Origin: a virus
Virus record (IMG/VR): IMGVR_UViG_3300044731_001110
Location: 5,147 to 69,146 of that record
DNA length: 64,000 nt
Strand: one strand, 5' to 3'
Below the pieces are notes generated by a model. It saw only the letters and a list, made by a program, of their open reading frames with translations, searched no databases and had not been told where the DNA came from. Positions 3,077-30,858 of the stretch are shown here, piece after piece (the first letter of the stretch is position 1; every line of letters begins with the position of its first letter). The position numbers were made by a program, and so were the translations under genes.

Positions 3077-6000
3077 ATGTCTTTTGTAATTATTAGTGAC
3101 TTATCTGGTGGTACGACATCAACAGTTAGGTGTGGGCAAAACAATCTTGCTGGTGCCGAATATTCAACAGTTTCCGGTGGTATTAAAAATACTGCGTCAG
3201 GAATTTATTCAAACGTAAGTGGTGGTTGGAAAAACACAGCGACCAATGTTGGTTCAACAATAAATGGTGGTACTTGTAATACTGCAACCGGAAGATTTTC
3301 TAGTATTTTAGGTGGATTTAAAAACAGAGCTTTAGATTGTAAATCTGTCGTTGTTGGTGGAGATAATGGATTGGCTAGGAGTGGATCAACAATTACCGGT
3401 GGCGATAACAATACTGCTTTAGGTTTTAATTCGTTTGTTGGTAATGGTTATTTTAACAAAGTTACTGGTAATTATTCTGGAATTATCGGTGGTAGTAACA
3501 ATGTTTTAATAGGATCAAATTCTGCAATTATAGGTGGGTCATTATTAACTGGTACGTCATCAAATACTGTTTATGTACCAAAATTAAATATTGATTTAGT
3601 AGGAACAACAACTTCGGTTAATAATTTAGGTATAGACGTTAATGGTAATGTTGTTACGGGTAATGATGTATATTTAAGTGCCGCAACATTAAATAATGTT
3701 GGTTTATTAACTTTAATAAACAGTAATGGTGTTACAGTATCTACAAGTGGTTTTATAACTTACGATAACTACGTAACTGGTGGTACTTTAGATTATTCAG
3801 CTGGAGCTCTTACTTTAGATTTAAGAGATGGTAGTAATGTTATTGTTCCTGGATTAGAAGATAAGTATTTTACTGGTGTAACATTTGATACGAATAGTTT
3901 TGATTTAACTATTGGAAGAAACGATGGCTTTACAGATACAATTAATCTTGGTGTTCTAGCAACTGACTTAGGTTTAACCGGTGGTACTTATGACGCTAAC
4001 ACTGGTGTTGTAACATTTATAAACACTTCAGGTCAAACAGTTCAAGTTTCTGGATTTACAACTGGATATACAGACACATATTTAACTGGAGGTACATTTA
4101 CCGCTGGCGATTTAACATTAATAAATACAGATGGATCAACAGTTTTAGTAACTGGGTTTACATCTATTGATACGTATGTTACTGGAGGTACGTATGATAA
4201 CTCAACTGGTAGTGCAACCTTTGAAAATAACCAGGGTGGTTCTTTTGTTGTAACTGGATTTACAACTGGGTTTACCGATGTATATGTAACAGGAATGACA
4301 TTTGATACTGGTAACTATGAGTTATCAATTGAAAGGAATGATGGATTTATTGATTCGGTTAATTTAGGAATATTATCTTCAGATTTAACAATTACTGGTG
4401 GTACATATGACTTAAACTCAGGTACCGCAACATTTACAAATAATAGTGGTGGAACATTTAGTGTTACTGGTTTCTTAACTGGTTATACAGATGTTTATGT
4501 TACTGGTGGATATTATACACCATCAACTGGGACTATAACAATCCAACAACAAAATGGTAATGTTAATATTTCTGGTATTGATGATGCTGTTATGGTACAA
4601 GGCGGTGGTTCCCAATCGACAGTTAGAAAAAATAATTTAAATAGTGCCACTGGACAAGCATCAACTGTTAGCGGTGGTTACAATAACTCTGCAACACAAT
4701 ACGGTGCAACAGTAGGTGGTGGTTCACTTAATAGAGCAATAAATTATAATGATACCGTTGCTGGTGGTTTTGTTAACTGTGCGACTGGTGCGTATTCATT
4801 TGTTGGTGGTGGTTACACAAACCAAGCAACAGGTTATATGTCAAGTATTGTTGGTGGTTGGGGTAATAGAACTTGTAACAATCAAGCCGTTGTTGGTGGT
4901 GGTTGTTTAAATACCGCTTTTGGATTACAAAGTGTTGTTGGTGGTGGTCATTTAAATACCGCAAATAATAGTTGCTCAACAGTAGTTGGTGGTTATGGAA
5001 ATATTTCTAATTGTTTTTATACATTTATTGGTGGTGGTTTTTTAAATACGGCAAATGGTTATATGGCAACAGCAACTGGTGGTAGATGTAATAGAGCAGT
5101 TGGTTGGTATTCGACAATTGGCGGAGGTCGAGAAAATACAGCATCTGGTCTTTATTCAATGATTTTAGGTGGTTACCAAAACGTAGCACTTGGTACTAGA
5201 ACAGCTGTTATTGGCGGACAAAATATTACAGGTGCAACAAATGATACTGTTTATGTACCACAATTAAATATACAAACTGTTGGAGCTACATCACCAGTTA
5301 TAAATTTAGGTTTAGATTCGTCTGGTAATGTTGTAACTGGAACAACACCTTCAGTTGATTATTATTTAACTGGATTAACTTTTGACAATGGTACTTTTGA
5401 CTTAACTGCTTCTGTTAACGATGGGAATGATTATACAGTAAATCTTGGTATTTTATCATCCGATATGACTGTAACTGGTGGTACTTATAACCCAACAACT
5501 GGTGATGCAACATTTGTTACAAATTCTGGAAATACATTTAGTGTTTCTGGATTCTTAACTGGATATACTGATGTTATATTAACTGGTGCAACAAAAGTTG
5601 GTGAAACATTAACATTAACAAATAGCGATGGCTCAATAGTTACTGCAACAGGATTTACTGATTATTATGTAACTGGAGGTACTTACGATGTTGGGGCTGG
5701 TGAAATCTACTTGGATAGACAAAATGGAACTGTTACAATAACAGGTATTTTTGACACCGATACTTATTTGACTGGTGGAACGTATAACTCGAATACAGGA
5801 CAGTTAACTTTAGGTCAAAACAATGGTCAACCAGACATTTCAGTTATTGGTTTCCAAACACAAAATACATTTGTTACTGGTGCAACATATTCTAATGGTA
5901 TATTAACATTAGGTAGAAACGATGGTGGTGTAGTAACAGCTTCAGGATTCATAAATAATGATTTCTTTGTAACTGGTGGTACATATAACAATGCTAATGG

Positions 6001-6748
6001 TCTAATAACATTAAATAGACAAAATGGTGTTGCGTCAGTTAGCGGTTTACCAGCAGGACTTGCATCAATACCGGCTCAAATTGTTTTAGCTGGTACAGGA
6101 GCAATTTCGACTCTTAGAACTGGTGCCTCAAACCTTGCTAGTGCACCTTGTGCTACTGTTTTTGGTAATGCTAACAATGCAGCTGGAACGGTTTCTGGTA
6201 TATTAGGTGGTATTTCAAGTTGTATCACAACTTTGGGTTATGGCTCAACAGTTGGTGGTGGTGCAACAAACACTATTACAAATTGTTATTCTAAAATTGG
6301 TGGTGGTCAATTTAACTGTGTTGCACAGCCTTGGTCAAGTATTCTTGGTGGTAAGAACAATGTTATTAATTCTTGTTCTAGTGCAATCGGTGGTGGTGAA
6401 AATAACGTAATTACAGCTAGTGTTCCTTGGTCAACAATAGCAGGTGGTTGTGGAAATAATATCGGTTCGTTAGCATCATATTCATCTGCCGTTGGTAGAT
6501 TAAATACTGTTTGTCTAAGTGACACACACGTATTGGGATGTAATATAACAACAGACCAATGTTTTACAACATTTGTAAATAACCTTACGGTTAATGGTGG
6601 TGGTATTCCTTCACCAAACACATGTTCAAGAGTTACATTAAAAAGTTTACCAACCGAATCTGAAATTGGTTCATTACCAAGTGGTACAGTTTATCGATGT
6701 ACAACAAGTGCGTCAGGTGGTGGTACTCAACTTTGGATTAAACTTTAA
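3077..6748 (+). CDS. Tail fibre/adhesin-like repeat protein (1223 aa) with 15-aa S(T/F)(V/I)xGGxxNxA beta-solenoid repeats and DxYVTGGTY repeats
   Basis: Translated repeats resemble trimeric-adhesin head repeats; paralog of 6816 and 25909. Confidence 0.7.
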   Translation: MSFVIISDLSGGTTSTVRCGQNNLAGAEYSTVSGGIKNTASGIYSNVSGGWKNTATNVGSTINGGTCNTATGRFSSILGGFKNRALDCKSVVVGGDNGLARSGSTITGGDNNTALGFNSFVGNGYFNKVTGNYSGIIGGSNNVLIGSNSAIIGGSLLTGTSSNTVYVPKLNIDLVGTTTSVNNLGIDVNGNVVTGNDVYLSAATLNNVGLLTLINSNGVTVSTSGFITYDNYVTGGTLDYSAGALTLDLRDGSNVIVPGLEDKYFTGVTFDTNSFDLTIGRNDGFTDTINLGVLATDLGLTGGTYDANTGVVTFINTSGQTVQVSGFTTGYTDTYLTGGTFTAGDLTLINTDGSTVLVTGFTSIDTYVTGGTYDNSTGSATFENNQGGSFVVTGFTTGFTDVYVTGMTFDTGNYELSIERNDGFIDSVNLGILSSDLTITGGTYDLNSGTATFTNNSGGTFSVTGFLTGYTDVYVTGGYYTPSTGTITIQQQNGNVNISGIDDAVMVQGGGSQSTVRKNNLNSATGQASTVSGGYNNSATQYGATVGGGSLNRAINYNDTVAGGFVNCATGAYSFVGGGYTNQATGYMSSIVGGWGNRTCNNQAVVGGGCLNTAFGLQSVVGGGHLNTANNSCSTVVGGYGNISNCFYTFIGGGFLNTANGYMATATGGRCNRAVGWYSTIGGGRENTASGLYSMILGGYQNVALGTRTAVIGGQNITGATNDTVYVPQLNIQTVGATSPVINLGLDSSGNVVTGTTPSVDYYLTGLTFDNGTFDLTASVNDGNDYTVNLGILSSDMTVTGGTYNPTTGDATFVTNSGNTFSVSGFLTGYTDVILTGATKVGETLTLTNSDGSIVTATGFTDYYVTGGTYDVGAGEIYLDRQNGTVTITGIFDTDTYLTGGTYNSNTGQLTLGQNNGQPDISVIGFQTQNTFVTGATYSNGILTLGRNDGGVVTASGFINNDFFVTGGTYNNANGLITLNRQNGVASVSGLPAGLASIPAQIVLAGTGAISTLRTGASNLASAPCATVFGNANNAAGTVSGILGGISSCITTLGYGSTVGGGATNTITNCYSKIGGGQFNCVAQPWSSILGGKNNVINSCSSAIGGGENNVITASVPWSTIAGGCGNNIGSLASYSSAVGRLNTVCLSDTHVLGCNITTDQCFTTFVNNLTVNGGGIPSPNTCSRVTLKSLPTESEIGSLPSGTVYRCTTSASGGGTQLWIKL

Positions 6749-6757
6749 TAAAAAAAC

Positions 6758-6786
6758 AAAACCCCCATTTAATAGTGGGGGTTTAA
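6758..6786 (+). terminator. Stem-loop between two fibre genes, possible terminator or processing hairpin
   Basis: AAACCCCCA(TTTAATAG)TGGGGGTTT inverted repeat; only a short U-tract on the + strand. Confidence 0.55.
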
Positions 6787-6815: not shown

Positions 6816-9800
6816 ATGGCATATGTTATTATAAATGATCCAAACGGTGGGTCAACCTCAACAGTAAGATGTGGTACTTTAAATTCTGCCGCATGTCCAT
6901 ATTCAGTTGTTACTGGTGGATATGCAAATAGTGCTAATTCTAGATTTGGGATTGTAACTGGTGGTTATTACAACACTACAACTGGTTGTATGGCAAATAT
7001 TTCTGGTGGTAGACAAAATAAATCATCTGGCTTTTATTCAACAGTTTCTGGTGGTAGACAAAATACAAATAACTCAATTTTTGGTGTAATTGCCGGTGGT
7101 TACTTAAACACAAATATTGGTGGTAATTCATCTATTGGTGGTGGTGTTTTAAATACAACAACTGGATCTGTTGCAACAATTGCTGGTGGTTGTGATAATT
7201 TAAGTTTAGGTGATTGTGGGTCAATAGTTGGTGGTTATAGAAATTCGGTAGAACAAATTTTTGGTACTGTTGGTGGTGGTTGTGAAAACTCAGCGTCTGG
7301 CGAATATTCATTTGTAGGTGGAGGAGCACAAAATACAGCTTCAAGTTATAACTCAACAATTTCCGGTGGTTTTTGTAACGTTGCAACTAATGCTTGTTCA
7401 ACAATTGCCGGTGGAGCACAAAATAGTGCAATAGGTGATTTTTCATTTATCGGTGGTGGTAGATTCAATACTGCAACAGATACAACTTCAACCATAGCTG
7501 GGGGTAATTCAAATATTGCCGACTGTGAATTTACAATTGTTGGTGGTGGTGAATATAATACAGTAGATTCTGTTTATAGTGCAATTCTTGGTGGATTTTG
7601 TAATACATCAATTGCAAACTTTTCTTCTGTTGTTGGTGGATGTAATAACGCAAATTTAGGTGCCGGATCATTTGTTGGTGGAGGGTGTTCAAATAGTGCA
7701 ATATCAAACATATCGGTAATTGCCGGTGGTGCTAGAAATCAAAACTTTGGGACTTACGCATCAATTCTTGGTGGATTATGTAACAAAACATATTTTGACG
7801 GTACAGTAATAGCTGGAGGTCAATTTAATACTGCAATTGGTTTTAATAGTAATATTGCTGGCGGTTATGGAAATACCGTCTCTGGATATTGTTCTGCAAT
7901 TGTTGGTGGTAATCAAAACTTAGTATTAGGTGACTGCTCAATGATATTTTCAAATAACTCAACTTTGGTTGCTGATAGAAGTGTTATTTTAGGAGGACAA
8001 AATATTTCTGGAACAACAGATGATACTGTTTATGTTCCTTATTTAAATATTCAAAATGTAACAACTGGTACATCGATTTCTAATTTGGGGATTGATTCTT
8101 CTGGTAATGTAATTTTTGGTCAAGATTTAACTGGTTCAACAGCACTTTATGAAGTTGGTTCTGGTACCGACTCAACACAAAGAATTGGTGTTAATTCTGA
8201 TGCTAGTGGTAATTGCTCTGTAGTTTCTGGTGGTTTAAATAATACAAGTAGTGGTTATTATTCTTTTATTGGTGGTGGTGGTGGAAACACTGCGAGTGGT
8301 AATACCTCAACTATTGCCGGTGGTGGACAAAACACAACAATATGTAATTATTCTTTTATTGGTGGTGGATCAGGCAATACTACGGAAGGTGAAAATTCAA
8401 CAATTGGTGGTGGAAATGTAAACTTAGCTATTGGTGACTATTCATTTATTGCTGGTGGAACTGCAAATACGGTTTCTGGTGATTATTCATCAATTATATC
8501 ATCAAATTCAATATTAACAGCAAATTATAGTATTATATTAGGTGGTAATGGACTTACTGGTACGTGTGATAATCACGCATATGTTCCTGGTTTGAACATT
8601 AACTTTTTAAGTAGTGGAACTTCAATCAACACTTTAGGTATTGATGTTAATGGTTATGTTGTTGCTACTGGAACTGGAAATACAGCAAGTGGATGTTATT
8701 CTTTTGTTGGTGGTGGTAAAGATAATACCGCAAGTGGTAATTATTCTTTTGTTGGTGGTGGTAGAGAGAATAAAGCGAGTAGTGATTTTACAACAATTGG
8801 TGGTGGTGAATGTAATAAAGCTGAGTTTACAAACTCAACCGTAAGTGGAGGAAGAAATAATACAGTAAGTAGTGTTTACGCTACAATAGGCGGTGGTCAA
8901 AGTAATTTTATAGATGGACTTCAATCAGTCATAGGTGGTGGTGCTGGTAACACATCAAGTGGTTATTACTCAACCGTAAGTGGTGGTGTTGGTAATGCGT
9001 CAAAAGGAGGTTGTTCAACCGTAAGTGGTGGTGTTGGTAACACAGCAAGTTGTAGATATTCAACCGTAAGTGGTGGTGTTGGTAACATGTCACGTAGCTG
9101 TGGTTCATCAATTGGTGGTGGTAAACAAAACGCTGCTGGTACGAGTGGAACTGTAAGTGCTTACTATGGATTAAGTACAAGTGGGTCAACAACAACAGGT
9201 ATTTTTCCTGGGGTTTCTTCTTCATTTACAGATAGTGTTAATGGTTCTGGTTCTTTGTTTCAATTTGATTTAACAGCAGGTGTTGTTAACAGTATTAATA
9301 TTACAAATGTAGGTCAAGATTATATTAATGGTGATTTTTTATTATTTGACGGAACATTGTTTGGTGGGACTTCTGGAACTGACGATATATCATTCCTTGT
9401 TTTAACATCTGATTATACGTTTGCAACCGTAAGTGGTGGTCAATGTAATACATCAAGTAATTGTTGGTCAACCGTAAGTGGTGGATATCTTAACACATCA
9501 AGTGGATATAATTCAACCGTAAGTGGTGGTCGTCAAAACACGTCAAGTGGTTGTTGGTCATTTATTGGTGGAGGATCGGTTAACACAGCAAGTGGAGACT
9601 ATTCAACTGTAAGTGGTGGTCGTCTTAATACATCAATAGGACCTGCTTCATTAATTGGTGGTGGTATATGTAATACATCAATATGTAATGCTGTAACAAT
9701 TGGTGGTGGTATATGTAATACAGTGTGTGGTGATTGTTCAACAATTAGTGGTGGTATAAACAATACGGTTAGTAGTAGTTACGGATTTATTGGTGGTGGT

Positions 9801-10520
9801 TTATATGGTGTTATAACACAATGTTTTGGAACTGTAAGCGGTGGATATAAAAACACCGTTCTAGGTTCTTGTGGAACTGTAAGTGGTGGTTATAGAAATA
9901 CTGCTTGTTTTTTATCAACAGTAAGTGGTGGTGAGTGTAACACATCAAGTGATTATGGATCAACTATTGGTGGTGGAAGTTTTAACACATCATCAGAATA
10001 TTATGCCTTTGTTGGTGGTGGTCTTTGTAATACGTCATCAAACTATTATTCAACAATTGTTGGTGGTCGTGAAAATACATCAAGTGGTTACAATTCATTT
10101 ATTGGTGGAGGTCTTCAAAATAAATCATTAAATCACTGTACAACTATTAGTGGTGGATTCCAAAATACAACACTTAATATTGGTGCCACAGTTGGTGGTG
10201 GTGGTCGTAATACGGCAGAAGGTATTTGTAGTACTGTAAGTGGTGGCTATCGCAATACTGTAAGCGGTGATACCTCAACAATTGCTGGCGGCCTTTGTAA
10301 TACAATTACAACATCATTCTCAAGTATTCTTGGTTGTAACAACAAAGTAGTTCACACGTCAGCACATATTATTGGTGATAGTATAACATCAACAGCTAAT
10401 TGTATGACTTTTGTAAATCAATTATCTGTTATGAATTTACAAGACGGTTCGGTTGGTTTACCATCTAAAGCTCTATATTATTGTTCAACAGACTCTAATA
10501 GAGTTTATTTTGTACCATAA
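6816..10520 (+). CDS. Tail fibre/adhesin-like repeat protein (1234 aa) with dozens of STVSGGxxNT repeats
   Basis: 15-aa periodic repeats; N-terminus paralogous to 3077 (GGxTSTVRCG). Confidence 0.7.
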   Translation: MAYVIINDPNGGSTSTVRCGTLNSAACPYSVVTGGYANSANSRFGIVTGGYYNTTTGCMANISGGRQNKSSGFYSTVSGGRQNTNNSIFGVIAGGYLNTNIGGNSSIGGGVLNTTTGSVATIAGGCDNLSLGDCGSIVGGYRNSVEQIFGTVGGGCENSASGEYSFVGGGAQNTASSYNSTISGGFCNVATNACSTIAGGAQNSAIGDFSFIGGGRFNTATDTTSTIAGGNSNIADCEFTIVGGGEYNTVDSVYSAILGGFCNTSIANFSSVVGGCNNANLGAGSFVGGGCSNSAISNISVIAGGARNQNFGTYASILGGLCNKTYFDGTVIAGGQFNTAIGFNSNIAGGYGNTVSGYCSAIVGGNQNLVLGDCSMIFSNNSTLVADRSVILGGQNISGTTDDTVYVPYLNIQNVTTGTSISNLGIDSSGNVIFGQDLTGSTALYEVGSGTDSTQRIGVNSDASGNCSVVSGGLNNTSSGYYSFIGGGGGNTASGNTSTIAGGGQNTTICNYSFIGGGSGNTTEGENSTIGGGNVNLAIGDYSFIAGGTANTVSGDYSSIISSNSILTANYSIILGGNGLTGTCDNHAYVPGLNINFLSSGTSINTLGIDVNGYVVATGTGNTASGCYSFVGGGKDNTASGNYSFVGGGRENKASSDFTTIGGGECNKAEFTNSTVSGGRNNTVSSVYATIGGGQSNFIDGLQSVIGGGAGNTSSGYYSTVSGGVGNASKGGCSTVSGGVGNTASCRYSTVSGGVGNMSRSCGSSIGGGKQNAAGTSGTVSAYYGLSTSGSTTTGIFPGVSSSFTDSVNGSGSLFQFDLTAGVVNSINITNVGQDYINGDFLLFDGTLFGGTSGTDDISFLVLTSDYTFATVSGGQCNTSSNCWSTVSGGYLNTSSGYNSTVSGGRQNTSSGCWSFIGGGSVNTASGDYSTVSGGRLNTSIGPASLIGGGICNTSICNAVTIGGGICNTVCGDCSTISGGINNTVSSSYGFIGGGLYGVITQCFGTVSGGYKNTVLGSCGTVSGGYRNTACFLSTVSGGECNTSSDYGSTIGGGSFNTSSEYYAFVGGGLCNTSSNYYSTIVGGRENTSSGYNSFIGGGLQNKSLNHCTTISGGFQNTTLNIGATVGGGGRNTAEGICSTVSGGYRNTVSGDTSTIAGGLCNTITTSFSSILGCNNKVVHTSAHIIGDSITSTANCMTFVNQLSVMNLQDGSVGLPSKALYYCSTDSNRVYFVP
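8970..9085 (+). repeat. Three exact 26-nt copies of TCAACCGTAAGTGGTGGTGTTGGTAA at 45-nt period (coding tandem repeat)
   Basis: Copies start at 8970, 9015 and 9060. Confidence 0.9.
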
Positions 10521-10541
10521 TAAAATAAAATTAATTTTTTT

Positions 10542-10577
10542 AATAACCCCAATCCAAAGTTGGGGTTATTTATTTTT
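10542..10577 (+). terminator. Intrinsic terminator
   Basis: AATAACCCCAA-loop-TTGGGGTTATT followed by a T-rich tract, just after the fibre gene stop. Confidence 0.75.
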
Positions 10578-10602: not shown

Positions 10603-11346
10603 ATGTTTGTAACTGTATGTAATAAAGATTATCTCATAGGATTTGAGGTAATGTTAAAATCTTTAATTGATAACAACCCAAGAGTTATTAATGATAATTT
10701 ACCTTTTGTAATTATCACAAATGATATAAATCCGGAAGATTTAATCACCTCAAGAAAAATTTATAACAATATACACATAAAAAGATTTGATACTGAAAAA
10801 TATTCTGAAATTGATGAACTAAAGAAAAAACAAATGGCATTTGGTGATTATACTAAATATGAAATTTTTTCTTTGGTTGAGTTTAATAAAATCATATTTT
10901 TAGATTCTGATATTGTTGTATTAGGGAATATTGATTATTTAATTGACTTTGATGGTGATATTGGTGGTGTTAGAGATTTATATATTGATCAGTATAATAC
11001 TGGAGTTTTAGTAATCTCAAAAAAGTACTTATCAGAAAAAATTACAAATGATTTAATACATCTTACAACAATCTATGGTATTACAGAACATCTTGACCAA
11101 GACATAATAAATAATTATTTTTATGATGAAATAACTGAAATACCAGTTTCATATAATTATCTTAAAACATACTCAAAAGAAATTTTTCAAAACACAGGTC
11201 TTCCTAAACATATTAAAATTTTACATTATATTGTAAAAAAACCTTGGCAACAGAAACCATTGGTTTATTTAGAAGAAGGTACAATCTGGCAAGAAAGATA
11301 TTGGTTTGAATATTACTCTAAACTTTTAAAATATAAAAATGATTAA
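10603..11346 (+). CDS. Glycosyltransferase family 8 (glycogenin-like)
   Basis: KYEIF..., IIFLDSD (DxD), YNTGVLV, DQDIIN and ILHY..KPW motifs. Confidence 0.85.
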   Translation: MFVTVCNKDYLIGFEVMLKSLIDNNPRVINDNLPFVIITNDINPEDLITSRKIYNNIHIKRFDTEKYSEIDELKKKQMAFGDYTKYEIFSLVEFNKIIFLDSDIVVLGNIDYLIDFDGDIGGVRDLYIDQYNTGVLVISKKYLSEKITNDLIHLTTIYGITEHLDQDIINNYFYDEITEIPVSYNYLKTYSKEIFQNTGLPKHIKILHYIVKKPWQQKPLVYLEEGTIWQERYWFEYYSKLLKYKND

Positions 11347-20474: not shown

Positions 20475-20477
20475 TAT

Positions 20478-20741
20478 ATGGAAACACAAGATTACGAACA
20501 AAGACAATTTATGATATTTAATGTATCAGAATTAACTAACATTGATTTTTCACAAGTATTAGAAACATCAATTGACACAGTTAGAAAAAGTATTGACGAA
20601 ACTAAAACATTTGTAAAATGGGATGGTGATACAATTCCGTCAAGTGTTGATAGTTTAACAACAAAAGAAGGTCCTTATACCTATCAAGAAATTATTGATA
20701 TTTTAAATACACCAGAGTGGACATCAAATGAAATGATATGA
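20478..20741 (+). CDS. Small acidic hypothetical protein within the LamG cluster
   Basis: 87-aa ORF tightly packed between LamG genes; TATTTAT at 20466-20472. Confidence 0.7.
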   Translation: METQDYEQRQFMIFNVSELTNIDFSQVLETSIDTVRKSIDETKTFVKWDGDTIPSSVDSLTTKEGPYTYQEIIDILNTPEWTSNEMI

Positions 20742-21466: not shown

Positions 21467-21479
21467 TATACTTATCAAT

Positions 21480-21698
21480 ATGTCACATCAACTAACAATA
21501 TCTGGAACTACTGGTACGCCACCATACGATGTGTATGTTTGTGATATTACAAACACTTATTGTTATTTAGTTTCTGGTGGAACATACATATCCGTATATA
21601 CCTTTGAGGTCCCACAACCATTAAATAACGTTGGTTCACTACTTGTAAAACTTATCGATTCAAACAGTTGTGAAATATTTAATTTTTATGAGTGTTAG
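21480..21698 (+). CDS. Small beta-rich hypothetical protein
   Basis: ATG at 21480 in frame with track ORF 21438; GTPPYDVYVCD motif. Confidence 0.6.
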   Translation: MSHQLTISGTTGTPPYDVYVCDITNTYCYLVSGGTYISVYTFEVPQPLNNVGSLLVKLIDSNSCEIFNFYEC

Positions 21699-22959: not shown

Positions 22960-24620
22960 TTACGTTAGTAACCGGTCTTTGGGATATTGGTAGAGGATCC
23001 TTAAATGAAGGATGGAATAGATCTTTTAACTATTATTTAGAAAAATTTAATGAATTATTAAAAATTGATTGTAACTTAATTATTTTTGGTGATGACAACC
23101 TTGAGACTTTTGTTAAAGAAAGAAGGAATATGTCAAAAACAAAATTTATTAAAAGAAGTTTAGATTGGTTTAAAAATAATGAATTTTATAATAAAATACA
23201 AGAAATAAGAACTAACCCCGATTGGTATAATCAAGTTGGTTGGTTAAAAGAATCCACACAAGCGAGATTAGAATTTTATAATCCACTTGTTATGTCTAAA
23301 ATGTTTTTATTACACGACGCATTACTTTTGGACCCATTTAACTCCGAAAAATTGTATTGGATTGATGCTGGAATATCAAACACAGTTAATATCGGTTATT
23401 TTACACACGACAATGTTTTAGAAAAAATTGATAACTTATTTGATAAGTTTTCTTTTATTGTTTTTCCATATGAAGCAAACACAGAAGTTCACGGATTCAA
23501 TCATTCAAAAATGTGTGATTACGCAAAAGAAAAAACTGAATTTGTTGCAAGAGGTGGATTTTTTGGTGGCACCAAAGAAACAATAAAAGAAATGAATAGT
23601 TTATATTATTTTCTTTTAAAAGACACATTAAAAAATAACTTAATGGGTACCGAAGAAAGTATATTCACAATTATGACTTATTTGCATCCGTCTCTAATTG
23701 ATTATACTAAAATAAACTCCGATGGTCTTTTATACAAATTTTTTGAAGACGTAAAAAATAATAATGTTATTATTGAGACAAACCAAAAAATAATAAAACA
23801 AAATTATGGTTCCGGAGTTGGTTTGTATGTTATTACATTTAATTCGCCAAATCAATTTGAAACTCTGATTAAATCAATGTTGGGTTATGATCCAGACTTT
23901 ATTTATAAAACAAAAAAGTTTCTATTAAATAATTCAACCGATTATAATACAACACCTAGGTATTTGGAGTTATGTGAAAAATACGGTTTTGAACATATAA
24001 AGAAAAATAACATTGGTATTACTGGTGGTAGACAATTTATTGCGGAACATTTTAATGAACAAGAAGATTTAGGTTATTATTACTTTTTTGAGGATGATAT
24101 GTTTTTTACTAACCCAAATTCTGGAGTTTGTAAAAACGGTTTTAATCGAAACGTTAATAATTTATTTTCAAATTCTTTAACAATATTGAAAAAAGAAAAT
24201 TTTGATTTTTTAAAATTAAACTTCACAGAATTTTTTGGTAGTAATAATACACAGTGGGCTTGGTATAATGTCCCACAAGACTTTAGAGAAAAACATTGGT
24301 CAAATAAACCAAGCTTACCAAGTGAAGGTTATGATCCGGATGCACCAAAAACAAATTTTAAAAATATAAATTCATATAATGGAATCCCATACACAAATGG
24401 TGAAATATATTTATGTAATTGGCCGATATTATTATCAAAAGAAGGAAATTACAAGTGTTATTTAAAACAAAAATTTCAATTTCCATACGAACAAACTTTG
24501 ATGTCATACAATTTCCAAGAAACAATAAAGGGAAATTTAAATCCTGGATTACTTTTAATTACACCAACTGAACATAATAGATTTGAATTTTATGACGCTT
24601 CATTAAGAAAAGAATGTTGA
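22956..24620 (+). CDS. HtrL/YibB-like domain fused to a C-terminal GT-A-like domain
   Basis: ITLVTGLWDIGR, YWIDAG, GGFFGG in the N-half; YVITFN, NIGITGGR, FFEDD in the C-half. Confidence 0.65.
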   Translation: MITLVTGLWDIGRGSLNEGWNRSFNYYLEKFNELLKIDCNLIIFGDDNLETFVKERRNMSKTKFIKRSLDWFKNNEFYNKIQEIRTNPDWYNQVGWLKESTQARLEFYNPLVMSKMFLLHDALLLDPFNSEKLYWIDAGISNTVNIGYFTHDNVLEKIDNLFDKFSFIVFPYEANTEVHGFNHSKMCDYAKEKTEFVARGGFFGGTKETIKEMNSLYYFLLKDTLKNNLMGTEESIFTIMTYLHPSLIDYTKINSDGLLYKFFEDVKNNNVIIETNQKIIKQNYGSGVGLYVITFNSPNQFETLIKSMLGYDPDFIYKTKKFLLNNSTDYNTTPRYLELCEKYGFEHIKKNNIGITGGRQFIAEHFNEQEDLGYYYFFEDDMFFTNPNSGVCKNGFNRNVNNLFSNSLTILKKENFDFLKLNFTEFFGSNNTQWAWYNVPQDFREKHWSNKPSLPSEGYDPDAPKTNFKNINSYNGIPYTNGEIYLCNWPILLSKEGNYKCYLKQKFQFPYEQTLMSYNFQETIKGNLNPGLLLITPTEHNRFEFYDASLRKEC

Positions 24621-24647
24621 TTGGTATATTTATAGTAAAAACTATTG

Positions 24648-25880
24648 ATGGAATTTTTTATTAAAAAAAATGCCACACTTCCTCTTTTAAAAATGCAAGT
24701 CGTAAAAGACGGGAGAAGTGACTATAATAATATGATGGATCTTATTGAGGAATCTTCAATCTTCTTTTCGATGGTTGATGTTGAAACTGGGATTCCAAGA
24801 ATAAGTACAAGACCAGCGGGTTATGTAAATAAAATATTACTAGACCCAAATGCGGAACCTGAATATTATGTATACTACCAATTTTCAAATTTTGATACAA
24901 GAAAAGTCGGTAGATATGAAGGTCAATTTTTATTTGTTAATGACCAAGGTACTTTAATTTTACCAATAAGGGATAAGTTATTTATTAATATCCAAGAAAG
25001 TTTTATTGGTGATGGTTTGACATACGATAATAATTGTTATGTGATTGATTATCCTTGTTGTAATCCTTCACCACCAGTTACTGCAACAACAACTACAATT
25101 TGTTATGTACCACCAACACCAACACCTTCACCAATTCCATTAGTAATAACATTAACAACAGTTGTAACTCCTGGTTCAATCGTTATTGATTATTACTTAA
25201 CAGCAAATAAAGTTGTTGACCAAAATGTTGATTTATTTTTTGACCACGTTTTAGGTGTTTATACCGGAAGTCCAATAACAATATCAACTGGTGTTACAAT
25301 AAATCAAGGTGGAACAACTGGAACAACACAAGTTATATTACCAGATAATTTTGATAATTTAACAAGAAATGATCAATACCAAAATGTAACAACAATTCCT
25401 AGTGGAATAACATATATAATTTCTGGAGACACATTCCCAGTAACACCAACCCCAACACCGAGTCCAACTCCAACACCGAGTCCAACTCCGGAAATAATAC
25501 AAAATGCAATTCTAACAAATAATAATGAGTATATTGGTATTGGGACAAATGAGTATTTAAGTTATGTTGATGTAACTTATTTTGTTGAGACAAATATTCA
25601 AAGCGGGTCAACAATTACAACTTTTTCAGTAACCGGTTCGACACCATATAGTAGTGATGTGATTATACCTTTAAGTGTTGTATTAGATTTAACAACCGGT
25701 GGTACAATAACAATAAGTGATTCTGTAACAATACCACAAGGTGAAATAGTTGGTACTAAAACAAATACAAACCCATTAAACTATAATAGTTTAAATAAAA
25801 ATGCGGAATTAAGAATACAACAACCAAATAATACATTTGTTAATTGTTTATTTTTAGCTTACCCAATAAATTTTGAATAA
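24648..25880 (+). CDS. Putative structural protein, BppU-like N-terminal domain, PT/T linkers and two similar beta domains
   Basis: FFIKKNATLP start; TATTTTI and PTPTPSP linkers; TATTTAT at 24627-24633. Confidence 0.55.
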   Translation: MEFFIKKNATLPLLKMQVVKDGRSDYNNMMDLIEESSIFFSMVDVETGIPRISTRPAGYVNKILLDPNAEPEYYVYYQFSNFDTRKVGRYEGQFLFVNDQGTLILPIRDKLFINIQESFIGDGLTYDNNCYVIDYPCCNPSPPVTATTTTICYVPPTPTPSPIPLVITLTTVVTPGSIVIDYYLTANKVVDQNVDLFFDHVLGVYTGSPITISTGVTINQGGTTGTTQVILPDNFDNLTRNDQYQNVTTIPSGITYIISGDTFPVTPTPTPSPTPTPSPTPEIIQNAILTNNNEYIGIGTNEYLSYVDVTYFVETNIQSGSTITTFSVTGSTPYSSDVIIPLSVVLDLTTGGTITISDSVTIPQGEIVGTKTNTNPLNYNSLNKNAELRIQQPNNTFVNCLFLAYPINFE

Positions 25881-25908: not shown

Positions 25909-28900
25909 ATGGCAACTTTAACAGGAAAAACAATTGGTGAATTAACACTTCTAACTGGAATTACAAATAATACATTATTTCCGGTAGAATATAATTTAAC
26001 AACATATCATATTCCATACTCCGGTATTAGTAATTTCCTAACCGGAGGTACCTATTCAAATGGTTCAATAACATTTACAAATAATCAAGGAAGTAGTTTT
26101 GTTGTATCTGGTTTATACACTGGATCAACAGATTTTTATGTTACTGGTGGTACATACTCAAATGGTACAATTACTTTAGACAGACAAAATGGTTCTGTAT
26201 CAATTACTGGTTTATATACTGGTTCTACCGATGTATTTGTTACTGGTGGTACCTATGATAACACAACTGGTACATTAACTCTAGAAGATAATAACGGAAC
26301 GTCATTTGGTGTAACTGGATTTACAACTGGTGGTACTGGGACTTCTTTATATGAAGTTGGTTCTGGAACTGACTCAACACAAAGGGTTGGTGTTAACTCG
26401 GCAGCATTAGGTAATATTTCAATTATTGCTGGAGGTTCTGGAAATACCGCAAGTGGTTATGTTTCAGTTATTAGTGGTGGTATACTTAACACATCGTTAG
26501 GTGACTGTTCTGTTATTGGTGGTGGTTCTTGTAATACATCCGGAATTAATGGTATTGTTGATTCGATATATAACCAAACTTTTACCGGTAATATTCCATC
26601 TAGTGGTTTTTATGGTTCATTTTCACCATCATCAACACTTTCTGGTCTTGGTACTGGTTCAACTTTTTCTTTTTACTTTTCATCTCCAACAACTTTAAGT
26701 AATGTTTATATTGGTAATCAAGGTAGTGGATATGTTAGTGGTGACACTTTAACATTTAACGGAACAATATTTGGTGGTGCTGTACCACAAGATAATGTTA
26801 CACTACAAATCACAACAACAAATGGCGGTTCAAACATTGTTGTTGGTGGTGGTTGTAGAAATACAGCAAATAGAAACTCATCAACAATCAGTGGTGGGAT
26901 TTTAAATAAAAGTAACGCAAACTGCTCAACAATCGGTGGCGGTTGTTGTAATATTATCACAAAAGACTCTTGTTACTCAACAATTAGTGGTGGTAGAAGA
27001 AATACTGGATACGGTTGTTACGGAGTAATTAGTGGTGGTCGTTGTAACGAAGCTGGTGCTTACGGTACAATAACTGGAACATATAATCAAGTATATACTG
27101 GTGGTACCTTAAACGGAACTTTTTCTGGTGGGTACGGCCCAACATCAACAACATCTGTTTATGGTGATGATGCCTTATTTGGTTTTGTCTTTAATTCTGG
27201 AACTTTATCTAGTGTTAAAATTGTTAATGGTGGTAATCTATATAGTGGAAATGATACTTTATTTTTTAATGGTAATATATTTCCTGGTGGAACAACTGGT
27301 ATTGATGATGTAACATTTCAAGTTAGTACATCAATAAATAACTATGCAACAGTAGCTGGTGGATGTTGTAATACTGCATCTGGTGAATACTCAACAATTA
27401 GTGGTGGGTATGAAAATACAGTATCCGGTGATTATTCAACTATTGGTGGGGGTTCTTGTAACACAATTAATACTAATTCGTGCTATTCAACTATTGGTGG
27501 TGGTGACGATAATACAATCCTTCAAGGTGATGTTGCAACAATTAGTGGTGGTGAAAATAATACGATAAGTGGTGATTATTCATTTATTGGCGGTGGTTAT
27601 GATAATATAATAACAAGTTCTTGTGCTACAATTAGTGGTGGATTTAACAATACCGCTAGTGGTTACAATTCATTTATTGGTGGTGGAGAAAATAACGTTT
27701 CTGGGCGAAATAATTTTGTTGACGGAATAAATAGTTCTGTATATACTGGTGGTACTTTGAATAATACTTACGGTGGTATCTCACCAACATCAACATCAAG
27801 TGGTACTGGGTCTGGAGCATTATTTAGTTTTGATTTTGTTCTTGGTGTATTACAAACCATCCAAATACAAAACGGAGGTTCTGGTTATTCTAATGGTGAA
27901 ACACTATATTTTAACGGTGGATTATTTGGTGGTGGTTCATCTCCTTTAGATGATGTTTGGTTAAACATCAATACAAACAATAGTACACATACAACAATAA
28001 GTGGTGGTCGTCAAAATACATCAAGTAATTTTTATTCAACAGTAAGTGGTGGTAGACAAAATACAGCAAGTGGAAATTCTTCAACCGTAAGTGGTGGTCT
28101 TGAAAATACAGCAAGTTGTTTTGGATCAACAGTAAGTGGTGGTGTCCTTAACACATCAAGTAACAATTATTCAACAATAAGTGGTGGATTTAGAAACACA
28201 TCAAGTGGTTATAATTCAACCGTAAGTGGTGGTTATCGTAACACATCAAGTAATTATTTTTCAACCGTAAGTGGTGGTCGTAATAATGTTTCCGAAAACC
28301 AATTTGATACAATTGGTGGTGGGTGTTGTAATACAACAATATTAAGTGGTGGCGCAACGGGTGCTGCAACAATAAGTGGTGGTGAGTGTAACACATCAGG
28401 AAATTACTACACATTTAATGGTGGTGGTTGTAGAAACGTTACACTAGGTGAATTTTCAACAATAGGAGGTGGATTAGGAAATACAAATTATGGTGGTTTT
28501 GTAACCTCAATTAGTTTTAATTCTGGTAGTTTATCTGGAATCACAGATAACACATATACAGTTAATCCAACTAGTTTAGTTGGTTATGGTTCAAACTTAC
28601 AATTTAGTTTTGATGTTAGTGGTGGTGTTGTTAGTAACATTATAATCATAAATCCAGGTGTAAGATATGAACAAGGAGAACAAGTTTTAGTTTCTGGTAA
28701 TACTATTGGTGGTTCATCACCAGCAAATGATTTAACCTTTAATTTAGATGATGTTGTAACTTCAGAATTTTCTTTTATTGGTGGTGGTGGGTGTAACACC
28801 TCAATAGGTTTTGCATCATCAATTCTTGGTGGGCTTTCTAATACTGCAAGTGGTGATTACTCAACAGTTGGTGGTGGTGGATCATCATCTGGATATAATG

Positions 28901-30858
28901 GAAATTTAGCATTAGGTGATTATTCTGTAATTGGTGGTGGTAATCAAAACACATCTCAAAATGATTTTGCGGCAGTTTTTGCTGGTTCTGGTAACACTTC
29001 GTCAGGTTATTATAGCATTATTGGTGGTGGAATAAGAAATACAAATACAAACGATCTTGGTTTTCTTGGTGGTGGTTTTTGTAATACATCAAGTGGTTAT
29101 GATGGAGTACTTGGTGGTGGTGGATGTAATACATTAAATAATTTACTTGGTGGTGTAATTGCCGGTGGTAGATTAAATACTGTTGTTGGTATATTCACAA
29201 ACACAATTGGGGGTGGTTTTGGAAATAACGTATCTACATTTGGTGCTGCAACAATTAGCGGTGGATATTTTAATACAACAAATAGTGACTACTCAACAAT
29301 AGGTGGTGGTTCATCAAATACTATAGATTCAATAACAACACAATCTGGCTATTATGTTCTTGGGTCAACAATAGGTGGGGGTTCTTTTAATACAATTTCA
29401 TCATATAGTTCATATTACGATTCTAATGGTAACACAATTGCCGGAGGAAATGGTAATACAACAGTATCATCTTATTATAATGGACAAACAATTGGTGGAG
29501 GTAGTAGGAACATTACATTTAATGATTATACAACAGTTAGTGGTGGTTTTAACAATACATCAAGTGGTTGTTTTTCAACCGTAAGTGGTGGTCGTCAAAA
29601 TACAGCAAGTTGTAATTATTCAAATGTAAGTGGTGGTCGTCAAAATACATCAAGTGGATATCTTTCAACCGTAAGTGGTGGTCGTTTAAACATATCAAGT
29701 GATAATTCTTCAACCGTAAGTGGTGGTTATTGTAACACATCAAGTAATTTGTATTCAACAGTAAGTGGGGGACGTAGAAACACATCAAGTGGTCAATATT
29801 CAACAATAAGTGGTGGGTACCGTAACCTATCATTAAATGATGGATCATTTATAGGTGGTGGTTTTTGTAACACATCAAGTGGTCAATATTCAACAATAAG
29901 TGGTGGTTATTATAACACCGCTAACGGTAATAATTCATTAGTTTCAGGAGGATTTTCAAATATAATACTTACATCAACAATTTCTAATTATATTAATTAC
30001 GGATCGGTAATTGCTGGTGGTAATAATAACTTTATTACTTGTATGGACACAAATAGCGCATATTGTATATATGGTCAAACTATTGGTGGTGGTTCTTTTA
30101 ATACAATATCTAATTATTATGTGGGTGGAACTAATAATATAAACTCTAGCACTATTGCGGGTGGTAATTGTAATTTGATTAATAGTGGTATTGGTGGTAA
30201 TGTTATTAGTGGAGGTATTAATAACACATCAAGTGGTCAATATTCAACCGTAAGTGGTGGTTTTTGTAACACGTCAAGTGGTTCTAATTCAACCGTAAGT
30301 GGTGGTGGTGAAAACACATCAAGTGGTGGTGATTCAACTATTGGAGGTGGTCGTAATAACATAACATTGTGTAATTTCGCAACTGTAAGTGGTGGTTATC
30401 GTAACACATCAAATAGTTGTTGTGGTTCAGTTGGAGGAGGTTCTTGGAACACAATTAGTGGTGCTAGATCCGTTATTGCTGGAGGTGGGGGTTCTTGTGC
30501 CGCATTAGGAAATAGAGCAATATGTGATTTTACCTCAGTACTCGGTGGTTCCGCAAATTTAGCTTGTTGTTCTTATGCTACTGTCGGTGGTGGTTTTTGT
30601 AACACATCAATTGGGACTCGTTCAACCGTAAGTGGTGGATATCGTAACACAGTAATAAATGGTTGTTCTGCAATACTTGGGGGTCAATGTAATACAACCC
30701 AACACGATTGTTCATTTATAGTTGGTAGTGGAATATGTAGTACTGCCGCAAACACAACTCACGTAAACTGTCTACACTTTAGTAATATACCAACAAGTTC
30801 AGCAGGTCTTGCACCAGGAACAGTATGGAATAATGGTGGTGTACTAAACATAGCATAA
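25909..30858 (+). CDS. Tail fibre/adhesin-like repeat protein (1649 aa) with STVSGG repeats and four inserted GSGY-type domains
   Basis: Translated repeats; shares modules with 6816 and 16343. Confidence 0.7.
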   Translation: MATLTGKTIGELTLLTGITNNTLFPVEYNLTTYHIPYSGISNFLTGGTYSNGSITFTNNQGSSFVVSGLYTGSTDFYVTGGTYSNGTITLDRQNGSVSITGLYTGSTDVFVTGGTYDNTTGTLTLEDNNGTSFGVTGFTTGGTGTSLYEVGSGTDSTQRVGVNSAALGNISIIAGGSGNTASGYVSVISGGILNTSLGDCSVIGGGSCNTSGINGIVDSIYNQTFTGNIPSSGFYGSFSPSSTLSGLGTGSTFSFYFSSPTTLSNVYIGNQGSGYVSGDTLTFNGTIFGGAVPQDNVTLQITTTNGGSNIVVGGGCRNTANRNSSTISGGILNKSNANCSTIGGGCCNIITKDSCYSTISGGRRNTGYGCYGVISGGRCNEAGAYGTITGTYNQVYTGGTLNGTFSGGYGPTSTTSVYGDDALFGFVFNSGTLSSVKIVNGGNLYSGNDTLFFNGNIFPGGTTGIDDVTFQVSTSINNYATVAGGCCNTASGEYSTISGGYENTVSGDYSTIGGGSCNTINTNSCYSTIGGGDDNTILQGDVATISGGENNTISGDYSFIGGGYDNIITSSCATISGGFNNTASGYNSFIGGGENNVSGRNNFVDGINSSVYTGGTLNNTYGGISPTSTSSGTGSGALFSFDFVLGVLQTIQIQNGGSGYSNGETLYFNGGLFGGGSSPLDDVWLNINTNNSTHTTISGGRQNTSSNFYSTVSGGRQNTASGNSSTVSGGLENTASCFGSTVSGGVLNTSSNNYSTISGGFRNTSSGYNSTVSGGYRNTSSNYFSTVSGGRNNVSENQFDTIGGGCCNTTILSGGATGAATISGGECNTSGNYYTFNGGGCRNVTLGEFSTIGGGLGNTNYGGFVTSISFNSGSLSGITDNTYTVNPTSLVGYGSNLQFSFDVSGGVVSNIIIINPGVRYEQGEQVLVSGNTIGGSSPANDLTFNLDDVVTSEFSFIGGGGCNTSIGFASSILGGLSNTASGDYSTVGGGGSSSGYNGNLALGDYSVIGGGNQNTSQNDFAAVFAGSGNTSSGYYSIIGGGIRNTNTNDLGFLGGGFCNTSSGYDGVLGGGGCNTLNNLLGGVIAGGRLNTVVGIFTNTIGGGFGNNVSTFGAATISGGYFNTTNSDYSTIGGGSSNTIDSITTQSGYYVLGSTIGGGSFNTISSYSSYYDSNGNTIAGGNGNTTVSSYYNGQTIGGGSRNITFNDYTTVSGGFNNTSSGCFSTVSGGRQNTASCNYSNVSGGRQNTSSGYLSTVSGGRLNISSDNSSTVSGGYCNTSSNLYSTVSGGRRNTSSGQYSTISGGYRNLSLNDGSFIGGGFCNTSSGQYSTISGGYYNTANGNNSLVSGGFSNIILTSTISNYINYGSVIAGGNNNFITCMDTNSAYCIYGQTIGGGSFNTISNYYVGGTNNINSSTIAGGNCNLINSGIGGNVISGGINNTSSGQYSTVSGGFCNTSSGSNSTVSGGGENTSSGGDSTIGGGRNNITLCNFATVSGGYRNTSNSCCGSVGGGSWNTISGARSVIAGGGGSCAALGNRAICDFTSVLGGSANLACCSYATVGGGFCNTSIGTRSTVSGGYRNTVINGCSAILGGQCNTTQHDCSFIVGSGICSTAANTTHVNCLHFSNIPTSSAGLAPGTVWNNGGVLNIA

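Follow-up and report, generated by a model that had tools for sequence, protein, structure and literature searches.

Glycosyltransferases, a sulfotransferase and candidate sulfate-activation genes interleaved with candidate fibre and stalk substrates in an uncultured phage

Mimivirus and its relatives coat their own surface fibrils with a virus-encoded glycosylation kit, and in the Xanthomonas RaxST system the sulfotransferase RaxST sulfates RaxX, with RaxP and RaxQ as the genes for 3'-phosphoadenosine 5'-phosphosulfate (PAPS). The available parts of the literature further describe TibC/Aah enzymes that heptosylate autotransporter proteins (PMC4358343), GT60 enzymes as polypeptide alpha-GlcNAc transferases that initiate mucin-type O-glycans (PMC8724618), and mycobacteriophages whose glycosyltransferases decorate the phage's own structural proteins (Freeman et al. 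2023, as cited in PMC12619734). Here we analyze a 64-kb stretch (the window) of a 69,146-bp virus contig with a G+C content of approximately 30% (IMG/VR record IMGVR_UViG_3300044731_001110, positions 5,147 to 69,146). An initial annotation of this DNA had proposed five glycosyltransferases, a module of a sulfotransferase and an adenosine 5'-phosphosulfate (APS) kinase, four giant fibres and Pro-Thr-rich (PT) proteins, and all of these genes were found in place in a single gene block. Judging from the gene families, their arrangement and their recurrence in other phages, we consider self-decoration, in which the phage modifies its own fibres and stalks, fairly probable.

The locus differs from the described viral systems in both enzymes and candidate targets. 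The mycobacteriophage targets are, in the available account, the C-termini of capsid and tail-tube subunits of actinophages, whereas the candidates here belong to a low-GC myovirus and comprise its giant fibres and Pro-Thr stalks, combined with other enzyme families and an added sulfation module. Clusters of the Mimivirus type belong to viruses of eukaryotes, employ other enzyme families and include nucleotide-sugar pathways that are absent from the window. In the literature searched, which did not extend to subscription journals or supplements, no phage TibC-like enzyme, phage or other viral sulfotransferase or sulfated virion was found.

The block comprises 22 genes (82-31397), all on the plus strand. 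No gap exceeds 82 nt, and neighbouring genes overlap seven times, among others at GT8/TibC-like, kinase/nucleotidyltransferase/DUF2061 and GT60/HtrL. General family scans covered 40 open reading frames (ORFs) of the window. The profile and structure searches that the initial annotation had proposed as a check placed GT8, the TibC-like enzyme, the sulfotransferase, the APS kinase, GT60 and the HtrL domain in their families far beyond chance. The same block is carried by 14 related loci in the viral collection, in which the gene order is kept and the enzymes are 62-93% identical while the intervening fibres are only 30-75% identical and vary in length. One clade among these relatives encodes two sulfotransferases, with no kinase found in the stretch covered.

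A recurring core of repeat fibre, GT9-fold enzyme and sulfotransferase

Three of the four giant proteins share a 15-residue SGG unit with the consensus Y-S-T-[IV]-[GS]-G-G-x-x-N-T-[AS]-S-G-x. Fibre A (3077..6748, 1223 amino acids (aa)), assigned by composition, sequence and motif count, holds 29 [GS]G..N motifs with 16 spacings of exactly 15, arranged in three blocks of 15-residue SGG coils between which lie repeats of approximately 33 residues ("VTGGTY") and TVYVPxLNI neck motifs; its relatives are 32-75% identical, far more divergent than the enzymes. Fibre B (6816..10520, 1234 aa) carries an array with 61 motifs and 50 spacings of 15, and fibre D (25909..30858, 1649 aa) the longest array, with 77 motifs and 37 such spacings. 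Fibre C (16343..19084, 913 aa), which is rich in Thr, Gly and Ser, has three motifs and no spacing of 15. Each of the four proteins consists of approximately 51-59% Gly, Ser, Thr and Asn (G+S+T+N), so the description of four giant Ser/Thr-rich fibres holds for their composition, and the SGG array belongs to A, B and D but not to C.

Among PDB sequences, fibre B matched the head domain of Moraxella UspA1 (3pr7, E 1.5e-19; 3ntn, E 3.1e-06), and a short stretch of it also matches a protein of cyanophage Cy-LDV1 that is annotated as a tail fibre. Fibre D gave a weak match to the beta-roll family PF21300 (E 3.4e-06), and parts of fibre C matched proteins of cyanophage S-TIM5 and of Flavobacterium phages whose annotation is tail fibre or virion structural protein. 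The SGG fibres thus resemble the heads of trimeric autotransporter adhesins (the beta-roll of UspA1 and YadA type) in the UspA1 match of fibre B and in the same kind of GG..N..G coil. They differ from them in their period of 15, in lacking any anchor or translocator family (Pfam, E<=0.01), and in being phage-encoded within the same-strand run as fibre C. On these matches, the SGG fibres are best described as head-like fibres and not as autotransporters. In 2158 SGG units pooled from 65 fibres that neighbour a sulfotransferase gene, positions 2, 3, 11 and 13 are mostly Ser or Thr and position 1 is Tyr in 28%, so that a coil offers three or four Ser/Thr and often one Tyr.

The enzyme most regularly found with these fibres is a second GT9-fold glycosyltransferase, GT9b (12273..13154, 293 aa), assigned through its predicted fold. 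Its score against PF01075 (18.6 bits) lies below the cut-off of 22 bits, and a profile of 31 members matched zero PDB sequences at E<=1, with nothing meaningful from a single-sequence PDB search either. The model (pLDDT, predicted local distance difference test, 90.8) has a GT-B fold closest to heptosyltransferases, with WaaC and WaaF among the nearest folds. Similarity between GT9b and the TibC-like protein of the same block was undetectable by BLASTP (E 0.56).

The sulfotransferase (13160..13978, 272 aa; PF13469, E 1.9e-20) is predicted to be a PAPS-dependent enzyme of the fold seen in tyrosylprotein sulfotransferases (TPSTs). Its PAPS-binding motifs, PRAGST (12-17) as the 5'-phosphosulfate-binding (5'-PSB) and RD...S (115-123) as the 3'-phosphate-binding (3'-PB) motif, are invariant in 31 sequences, as are E39 and K90, which are candidate catalytic residues. 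The profile built from these 31 members gave TPST1 as its best match (E 1.3e-08), and in a Foldseek search with the predicted structure the first 13 ranks among the matches listed were all TPSTs, at 15-17% identity over the aligned residues. In profile and predicted fold, the enzyme is therefore nearest the TPSTs, and it could act on fibre tyrosines directly rather than on glycans. It shares with TPST1/2 and with bacterial RaxST the nearest profile and fold and invariant PAPS motifs, and, as with RaxP/RaxQ, a PAPS supply gene adjoins the transferase. It is set apart by the low sequence identity, by a giant repeat fibre as candidate substrate instead of a short secreted peptide, and by a GT9-fold enzyme as constant neighbour. 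The initial annotation had the phage's glycans as the target of sulfation. The identity of the sulfotransferase stands, but because its fold is nearest TPST the glycan becomes one of two options, and we regard tyrosine and sugar as about equally likely acceptors.

Directly downstream lie candidate genes for PAPS supply. A trimmed APS kinase (13982..14437, 151 aa), with the P-loop GQPGAGKT and a DGD motif, passes PF01583 (E 1.4e-18, 67.9 bits against a cut-off of 21.1); the APS-kinase models of NCBIfam matched at E 1e-19 to 1e-20, all below their cut-offs (TIGR00455, 68.8 against 138.7 bits). A nucleotidyltransferase (14434..14898, 154 aa; PF01467, E 5.4e-07) follows, with YHLGH and ISATGIR motifs. 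Its best named relatives are archaeal NMN adenylyltransferases, and none of its 21 NCBIfam or Pfam matches was to a sulfurylase family (Sat, CysD). The kinase and the nucleotidyltransferase match the two halves of a single phage family of 230 positions, phrog_10255. Across 80 sulfotransferase loci, both genes occurred in 29, the kinase only in 4, the nucleotidyltransferase only in 1 and neither in 46, and in all 28 loci in which both could be placed they were one to two genes apart. Because of this linkage and the joint profile, we propose that the nucleotidyltransferase may be a minimal ATP sulfurylase. A DUF2061 protein (14882..15322, 146 aa; PF09834, E 4.2e-14) completes the group and was present in 21 of 33 loci with the APS kinase and in 0 of 47 without it. 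Its C-terminal part is hydrophobic, and it alone in the block exceeds a Kyte-Doolittle value of 1.6 in a 19-residue window; the enzymes have no hydrophobic segment.

In order to follow these genes across phages, loci were anchored on the sulfotransferase. Of 199 matched stretches, 193 encode relatives, from which the best 80 (62-90% identical) were taken, and 54 of these loci measure at least 15 kb; many of the 80 are near-duplicates and not independent, and percentages drawn from them overstate the number of independent events. Within the 54 loci, a protein of 300 aa or more in which G+S+T+N reaches 45% or higher was found in 52, GT9b in 49, a fibre-B homologue in 43 and an array of at least 10 SGG units in 41. 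The APS kinase was found in 26 and the nucleotidyltransferase in 25, followed by the TibC-like gene (16), GT8 (12) and GT60 (9). Where both genes were present (61 loci), GT9b and the sulfotransferase were one gene apart in 47 loci and two genes apart in 14. By our reading the gene orders fall into about ten arrangements, among which the order fibre, GT9b, sulfotransferase recurs.

Two samples anchored on other genes were also examined. In 16 whole contigs chosen through the TibC-like gene only, all 4 contigs that hold GT9b and the sulfotransferase had an SGG array, and none of the 12 others did. The 4 come from three lineages and include a complete 114.6-kb phage whose TibC-like gene is a different, fused one. 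A search with the fibre-B protein yielded 4 loci, all close relatives, and hence the back-translated neck motif was used as an anchor. Most fibres found in this way have the neck without an SGG array, and in the resulting 49 contig groups GT9b was present in 5 of 7 with an array versus 1 of 42 without. The 5 groups with both belong to the lineage of the window. In total, the steady core is an SGG fibre, GT9b and the sulfotransferase, accompanied by an optional PAPS kit.

GT60 with Pro-Thr tracts, and the TibC-like insert

A second pairing joins GT60 to Pro-Thr tracts. The GT60 polypeptide GlcNAc-transferase-like enzyme (21715..22959, 414 aa, DSH at 92-94) matches PF11397 at E 2.1e-70 (238.4 bits against a cut-off of 21) and phrog_24687 at E 6.7e-162. 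It is 43-49% identical to genes in four records of cultured jumbo phages, and at least 7094 relatives were found at E<=1e-5 among 8000 scored candidates. Like the protist GT60 enzymes, which comprise the mucin-type initiators of Dictyostelium and Trypanosoma cruzi and the Skp1 hydroxyproline enzyme, it shows a strong family match and no lectin domain, and it adjoins Thr/Pro-rich, mucin-like tracts; unlike them it is phage-encoded and has no membrane segment to anchor it, and its function is predicted from sequence. No prolyl hydroxylase was seen in the family scans of the window, and Thr is therefore a likelier acceptor than hydroxyproline.

The tracts themselves lie in three proteins of the block. 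PT1 (15354..16331, 325 aa; Thr 23.6%, Pro 16.9%) consists of nearly pure Thr-Pro repeats between residues ~74 and 215 with folded N- and C-terminal ends, and in relatives the ends are conserved and the tract varies in length (102-578 aa). PT2 (24645..25880, 411 aa) has two Pro-Thr/Ser linkers (156-163 and 267-282); neither PT1 nor PT2 matched any Pfam family even at E<=10. The peptidase protein at the head of the block (82..2997, 971 aa, with its likely start at an ATG 24 nt in) has a 14-letter Pro-Thr linker, Thr runs, a dense Cys cluster at approximately 290-420 and a C-terminal papain-like (C1) peptidase domain (residues 751-967; PF00112, E 5.9e-05; phrog_16701, E 2.1e-54). In 12 of the 14 related loci it is conserved at 65-81% identity and again opens the fibre block.

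Across 99 locus groups, none of them anchored on GT60 or on Pro-Thr tracts, tracts were found in 6 of 7 groups with GT60 versus 7 of 92 without (Fisher P = 1e-05), and outside the lineage of the window in 3 of 4 versus 7 of 80. In four loci outside the lineage (L025, L031, L037 and L040), GT60 directly adjoins the tract protein. The proposal of two substrate classes thus survived the co-occurrence tests, with GT60 accompanying Pro-Thr tracts and GT9-fold enzymes and the sulfotransferase accompanying SGG arrays.

The gene overlapping GT60 encodes the HtrL two-part enzyme (22956..24620, 554 aa), of which residues 2-250 form an HtrL/YibB domain (PF09612, E 7.3e-21). Its C-terminal half had zero Pfam matches even at E<=10, and PDB sequence searches with GT60 and with the HtrL protein returned nothing meaningful. 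A language-model lead to phage clusters bearing GT2 and a YVITFN...EDD pattern suggest that this half is possibly GT-A, which we treat as a lead and not as a result. Of the HtrL and GT-A assignment proposed at the outset, the HtrL part is accordingly secure in Pfam and the GT-A half is not confirmed there. The cultured Xanthomonas phage Xoo-sp13 encodes a full-length HtrL homologue of 546 aa (E 1.5e-144) four genes after its GT60, both near a giant protein whose richest 20-residue window holds 15 Pro or Thr.

The remaining two glycosyltransferases, GT8 and the TibC-like enzyme, form an insert specific to the lineage of the window. GT8 (10603..11346, 247 aa, DSD at 101-103) scores 91 bits on PF01501 (E 1.2e-25; cut-off 24.3), overlaps the TibC-like gene by 8 nt and is 73-93% identical in 14 of 14 related loci. 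The TibC/Aah-like GT9-fold enzyme (11339..12253, 304 aa) matches TIGR04414 at E 5.4e-35 from its residue 23 onward, covering positions 79-373 of the 374-position profile, with a score of 121 bits that falls short of the equivalog cut-off of 200. The only PDB sequences that it matched at E<=1 were two of TibC (4rap, E 5.6e-17), and a profile of the protein with 27 relatives matched TibC over nearly its full length (E 2.1e-93).

Residue by residue, in the numbering and roles given in the available text for TibC (PMC4358343), the catalytic Asp and the iron finger are retained. D40 in FCLGDTIC aligns with the catalytic Asp110 in the LGD of TibC (108-110), in a nearly invariant column next to the invariant G39, and the iron-finger cysteines C256, C259, C270 and C282, invariant in 28 sequences, align with Cys 339, 342, 358 and 370. 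The N-terminal beta-barrel (TibC 1-97) is missing, and the protein has 304 residues compared with 406. The beta-hairpin thumb (Phe265, Val266) is shortened by 8 residues, as the query has two 4-residue gaps opposite TibC positions ~263-266 and 269-272. Among the sugar-binding residues, the pairwise alignment keeps Trp305 (W223) and places Ile, Ser and Ala in the columns of Thr226, Lys230 and Arg286, with a Thr and a Lys one to three residues away, so that a shifted alignment is possible. In the available description, barrel and thumb both serve assembly of the TibC dodecamer (PMC4358343), and the phage enzyme therefore probably assembles differently. Because the protein is stripped in this way, lacking the barrel, with a short thumb and with three of four sugar-binding residues unaligned, heptose is not secure as its sugar; no gene for ADP-heptose synthesis was seen among the 40 ORFs scanned. 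The Aah/TibC-like designation thus holds for the family and fails on the equivalog cut-off, the barrel and the thumb. The accompanying claim that the Aah/TibC and GT60 families transfer sugar to protein is borne out by the available text of PMC4358343 and PMC8724618. The E. coli pairs TibC-TibA and Aah-AIDA-I (4rap, 4rb4) resemble the window in having the enzyme gene beside a Ser-rich repeat beta-solenoid adhesin, and they differ in that the candidate substrate here is a 15-residue UspA1-head-like roll and theirs a 19-residue AIDA-type helix.

The TibC-like family is large, with 974 representatives at E<=0.001 in a clustered library and at least 591 stretches in viral contigs. Of the 15 proteins from other lineages that were scanned, 14 are fusions in which the TibC-like domain follows a GT4 domain, an arrangement that fits an initiator-plus-extender pair. 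In the cultured cyanophage Mel-JY01 of Microcystis, a TibC-like domain ends a 1226-aa protein annotated as an FkbM methyltransferase (locus L003, 4750-8430), with a gene for a "cytidylyltransferase like protein" 3 kb downstream. The association of the family with fibre-like giants is real but loose. Of 75 further TibC-like loci, 47 hold a protein that is 300 aa or longer and has G+S+T+N of 45% or more. When whole contigs served as background (15 contigs), 10 of 14 independent ones had their nearest Gly/Ser/Thr/Asn-rich giant no more than 7 genes from the TibC-like gene (combined P = 0.014). The expectation that the enzymes would co-occur with the repeat proteins across genomes was borne out for GT9b, the sulfotransferase and GT60, and not for the TibC-like enzyme and GT8 with SGG fibres, given their presence in only 16 and 12 of the 54 sulfotransferase loci.

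Proposed decoration scheme and competing explanations

Gene families and predicted folds, dense packing on one strand and the return of the pairings in other phage lineages are direct observations; that the fibres are acceptors, which sugars are used, whether tyrosine or sugar takes the sulfate and what a coat would serve are inferred from them. In the scheme that we favour, the phage would decorate its appendage proteins inside the infected cell, in the cytoplasm, either ahead of assembly or in the course of it. In an SGG module, GT9b and the TPST-like sulfotransferase would act on the UspA1-head-like fibres, and the sulfotransferase would be fed with PAPS by the APS kinase, the nucleotidyltransferase as putative maker of APS and the small DUF2061 membrane protein. 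In the lineage of the window, the stripped TibC-like enzyme and GT8, inserted between fibre and GT9b, would probably add and extend a second sugar. In a mucin-type module, the soluble GT60 would start a glycan, probably with GlcNAc, at Thr residues in the Pro-Thr stalks of PT1, of PT2 and of the peptidase protein, and the HtrL two-part enzyme would extend it. The TibC-like/GT8 and GT60/HtrL pairs would thus be further modules stacked into one block by this lineage.

Several observations, in addition to the redundancy of the sulfotransferase sample, weigh against this reading. The phage is uncultured, and the system is known here from its genes alone. A sister clade keeps GT8, the TibC-like enzyme, GT9b and the fibres without the sulfation genes, including on a 160-kb contig. 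Two SGG arrays in the neck-motif sample have no GT9b in reach, in L296 (20 kb of a 194-kb contig) and in L335 (an incomplete locus). Within +-10 kb, TibC-like genes of 22 clusters were not closer to fibre-like genes than random genes are (permutation, P = 0.28 and 0.08), and among the 14 whole contigs a Gly/Ser/Thr/Asn-rich giant is missing from 3 and lies 209 genes away in 1. Approximately ten Planctomycetota loci (L405-L413 and L416) carry a 46-49% identical sulfotransferase without GT9b or a repeat protein. The initial annotation had named enzymes without repeat proteins in relatives as a finding that would speak against it, and these loci are counter-examples of that kind. Fibre genes and the variable "island" genes of large phages also often cluster without a common function.

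A rival to the sulfated-glycan step of the initial annotation is direct protein sulfation, in which sulfate would go onto tyrosines of the SGG fibres independently of sugars, as RaxST does with RaxX in Xanthomonas, with the phage PAPS genes as feed. We hold this to be possible, though we lean away from it. The TPST1 match of the 31-member profile and the TPSTs in the first 13 Foldseek ranks listed argue for it, as does Tyr being the commonest residue at coil position 1 (the 28% of the 2158 units from 65 fibres). An acidic residue before Tyr ([DE]-Tyr) is enriched 3.9 times in fibre B (9 seen, 2.3 expected) and 2.4 times in fibre D (8 against 3.3), a mild enrichment that also counts against the favoured scheme. 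A common fold does not fix the acceptor, however, and the presence of GT9b within two genes of the sulfotransferase in 61 of 61 loci with both fits an order of sugar first, then sulfate. The position-1 Tyr may be buried in the beta-roll, and its frequency is not clearly different where the enzyme is absent (18% of 65, 11% of 27 and 25% of 16 units). TPST-type enzymes act on unfolded peptide, which sits uneasily with a tightly folded beta-roll, also where the favoured scheme has the sulfotransferase act on the fibre.

The main rival to decoration of the phage's own proteins, which we judge improbable but worth weighing, is that the enzymes remodel the host surface, acting on the lipopolysaccharide (LPS) core, the capsule or another glycan of the envelope during infection in order to block superinfection, loosen the envelope or make a sulfated glycan, with the adjacency to fibres reflecting a common variable tail-fibre island. 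GT8, GT9 and HtrL are classic LPS-core families, which also speaks against decoration of the phage's own proteins. The best NCBIfam match of GT8 is an LPS galactosyltransferase, the best-scoring named NCBIfam relative of the sulfotransferase is the Nod-factor enzyme NoeE (E 1.7e-07), and the WaaC and WaaF folds near GT9b and the non-significant adjacency of TibC-like genes within +-10 kb point the same way. In the available text of one study, 13 glycosyltransferases of a cyanomyovirus are read as modifying the host cell wall (PMC12801897). Hitch-hiking in an island alone would not be expected to produce the repeated pairings of GT9b and the sulfotransferase with SGG arrays and of GT60 with Pro-Thr tracts. 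In addition, the characterised GT60 and BAHT enzymes act on proteins, as far as the available sources describe them, the fold of the sulfotransferase is nearest to protein-tyrosine enzymes, and the enzymes are conserved while the fibres diverge.

To our knowledge, the families of this block are not those known from DNA glycosylation. Hypermodification of DNA, with sugars placed on modified bases of the phage genome as an escape from restriction, is a frequent reading of phage glycosyltransferases (in the available text of PMC12619734 and 10.1101/2023.12.21.572611) but is highly implausible here, since cytosine methyltransferase, TET-type dioxygenase and hydroxymethylase families were matched by 0 of the 40 ORFs scanned and the sulfotransferase and Pro-Thr partners have no place in such a scheme.

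Genomic setting and significance

The window contains genes of a contractile-tail phage (myovirus), including tail sheath, tail tube, baseplate hub, family B DNA polymerase (PolB) and SNF2 helicase. A TibC-like protein 92% identical to that of the window lies on a relative's 115-kb contig rated only 39% complete, and the phage is therefore probably of jumbo size. A megablast search of 22 kb of the block against cultured phages gave zero matches. Upstream, the block is bordered by genes on the opposite strand, and downstream by a 335-nt gap followed by PolB; PolB and a block of reverse-strand genes separate it from the sheath, tube and baseplate genes further along the window. Between the genes of fibres A and B lies a weakly supported terminator-like element, a palindromic GC-rich hairpin (6759..6784, no strand assigned), and a 12-pair hairpin with a T run (10542..10570, plus strand) follows fibre B right before the enzyme block. 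Terminator-like elements in the window were not more numerous than in shuffled sequences (10 versus 8.1), nor were promoter-like ones, and the claim of an operon is therefore limited to gene spacing.

Four features of the block go beyond the initial annotation, namely the nucleotidyltransferase, the DUF2061 protein, the peptidase protein and a set of ConA-like proteins. Three ConA-like (Laminin_G_3) proteins of 223-242 aa and an 87-aa ORF (19087..21466) follow fibre C, the former matching PF13385 at E 1e-10 to 2e-14 and phrog_8510, a "virion structural protein". An 86-aa Cys-containing protein (21438..21698) is 61-89% identical in 8 of 14 related loci and recurs beside PT1-like proteins in lineages of other gene order, such as the arrangement of sulfotransferase, 86-aa protein and PT1 in L261-L263. 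Two relatives (14940-20903 in L008 and L010) have, directly after PT1, a reading frame of at least 1988 aa that is 87% Gly, Ser, Thr and Asn, a composition far more extreme than that of any fibre in the window. The last gene of the run encodes a 173-aa Cys-rich protein (30876..31397).

Outside the block, the sheath gene (43433-46768) encodes 1111 aa, of which only the last ~290 residues form sheath domains and ~820 N-terminal residues have no family assignment. Two further giants in the baseplate region (51401-56677 and 56992-63504; 1758 and 2170 aa) gave faint matches only, to an OmpA-like family (E 2.8e-04) and to the tail protein phrog_52 (E 3.3e-05). Among phage genes on the minus strand, a 697-aa protein (36873-38966) holds a complete Fe/Mn superoxide dismutase (PF00081 and PF02777, residues 164-353) embedded between unassigned N- and C-terminal parts. 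Relatives of the sulfotransferase occur in other settings as well. The Planctomycetota loci lie on high-GC contigs, also have no kinase within 10 kb and represent another context for the family, and several low-GC matches in bacterial bins look like binned phage. On a 592-kb contig of a Verrucomicrobial bin (L403, G+C 0.55, no GT9b), a 55% identical sulfotransferase at approximately 10001-10816 adjoins a 2107-aa Gly/Ser/Thr/Asn-rich protein. A prophage might account for this, as might a pairing of the same kind used by the bacterium.

Finally, we tentatively suggest a broader possibility, namely that many tailed-phage lineages might sulfate their own fibres by means of a phage-only TPST-like sulfotransferase and a GT9-fold enzyme, served by a self-contained PAPS route with a minimal ATP sulfurylase of approximately 150 residues, which would turn adhesin-like beta-roll fibres into sulfated, sugar-coated polyanions. 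If this is true, such fibres would be the first sulfated virion component of any bacterial virus, and the sulfurylase would represent a new class of sulfate-activation enzyme. The block is also a source of compact, soluble enzymes with which repeat proteins might be glycosylated and sulfated, and of a concrete candidate for a minimal ATP sulfurylase. The genes are common, with at least 193 sulfotransferase loci and at least 591 TibC-like loci in the viral collection and more than 7000 relatives of GT60 among the scored candidates, and a large proportion of the uncultured large phages from aquatic habitats is therefore concerned by this question. Fibres decide to which cells a phage can attach, and if they are densely sugared and sulfated, host range, stability and recognition would not be readable from the fibre sequence alone.

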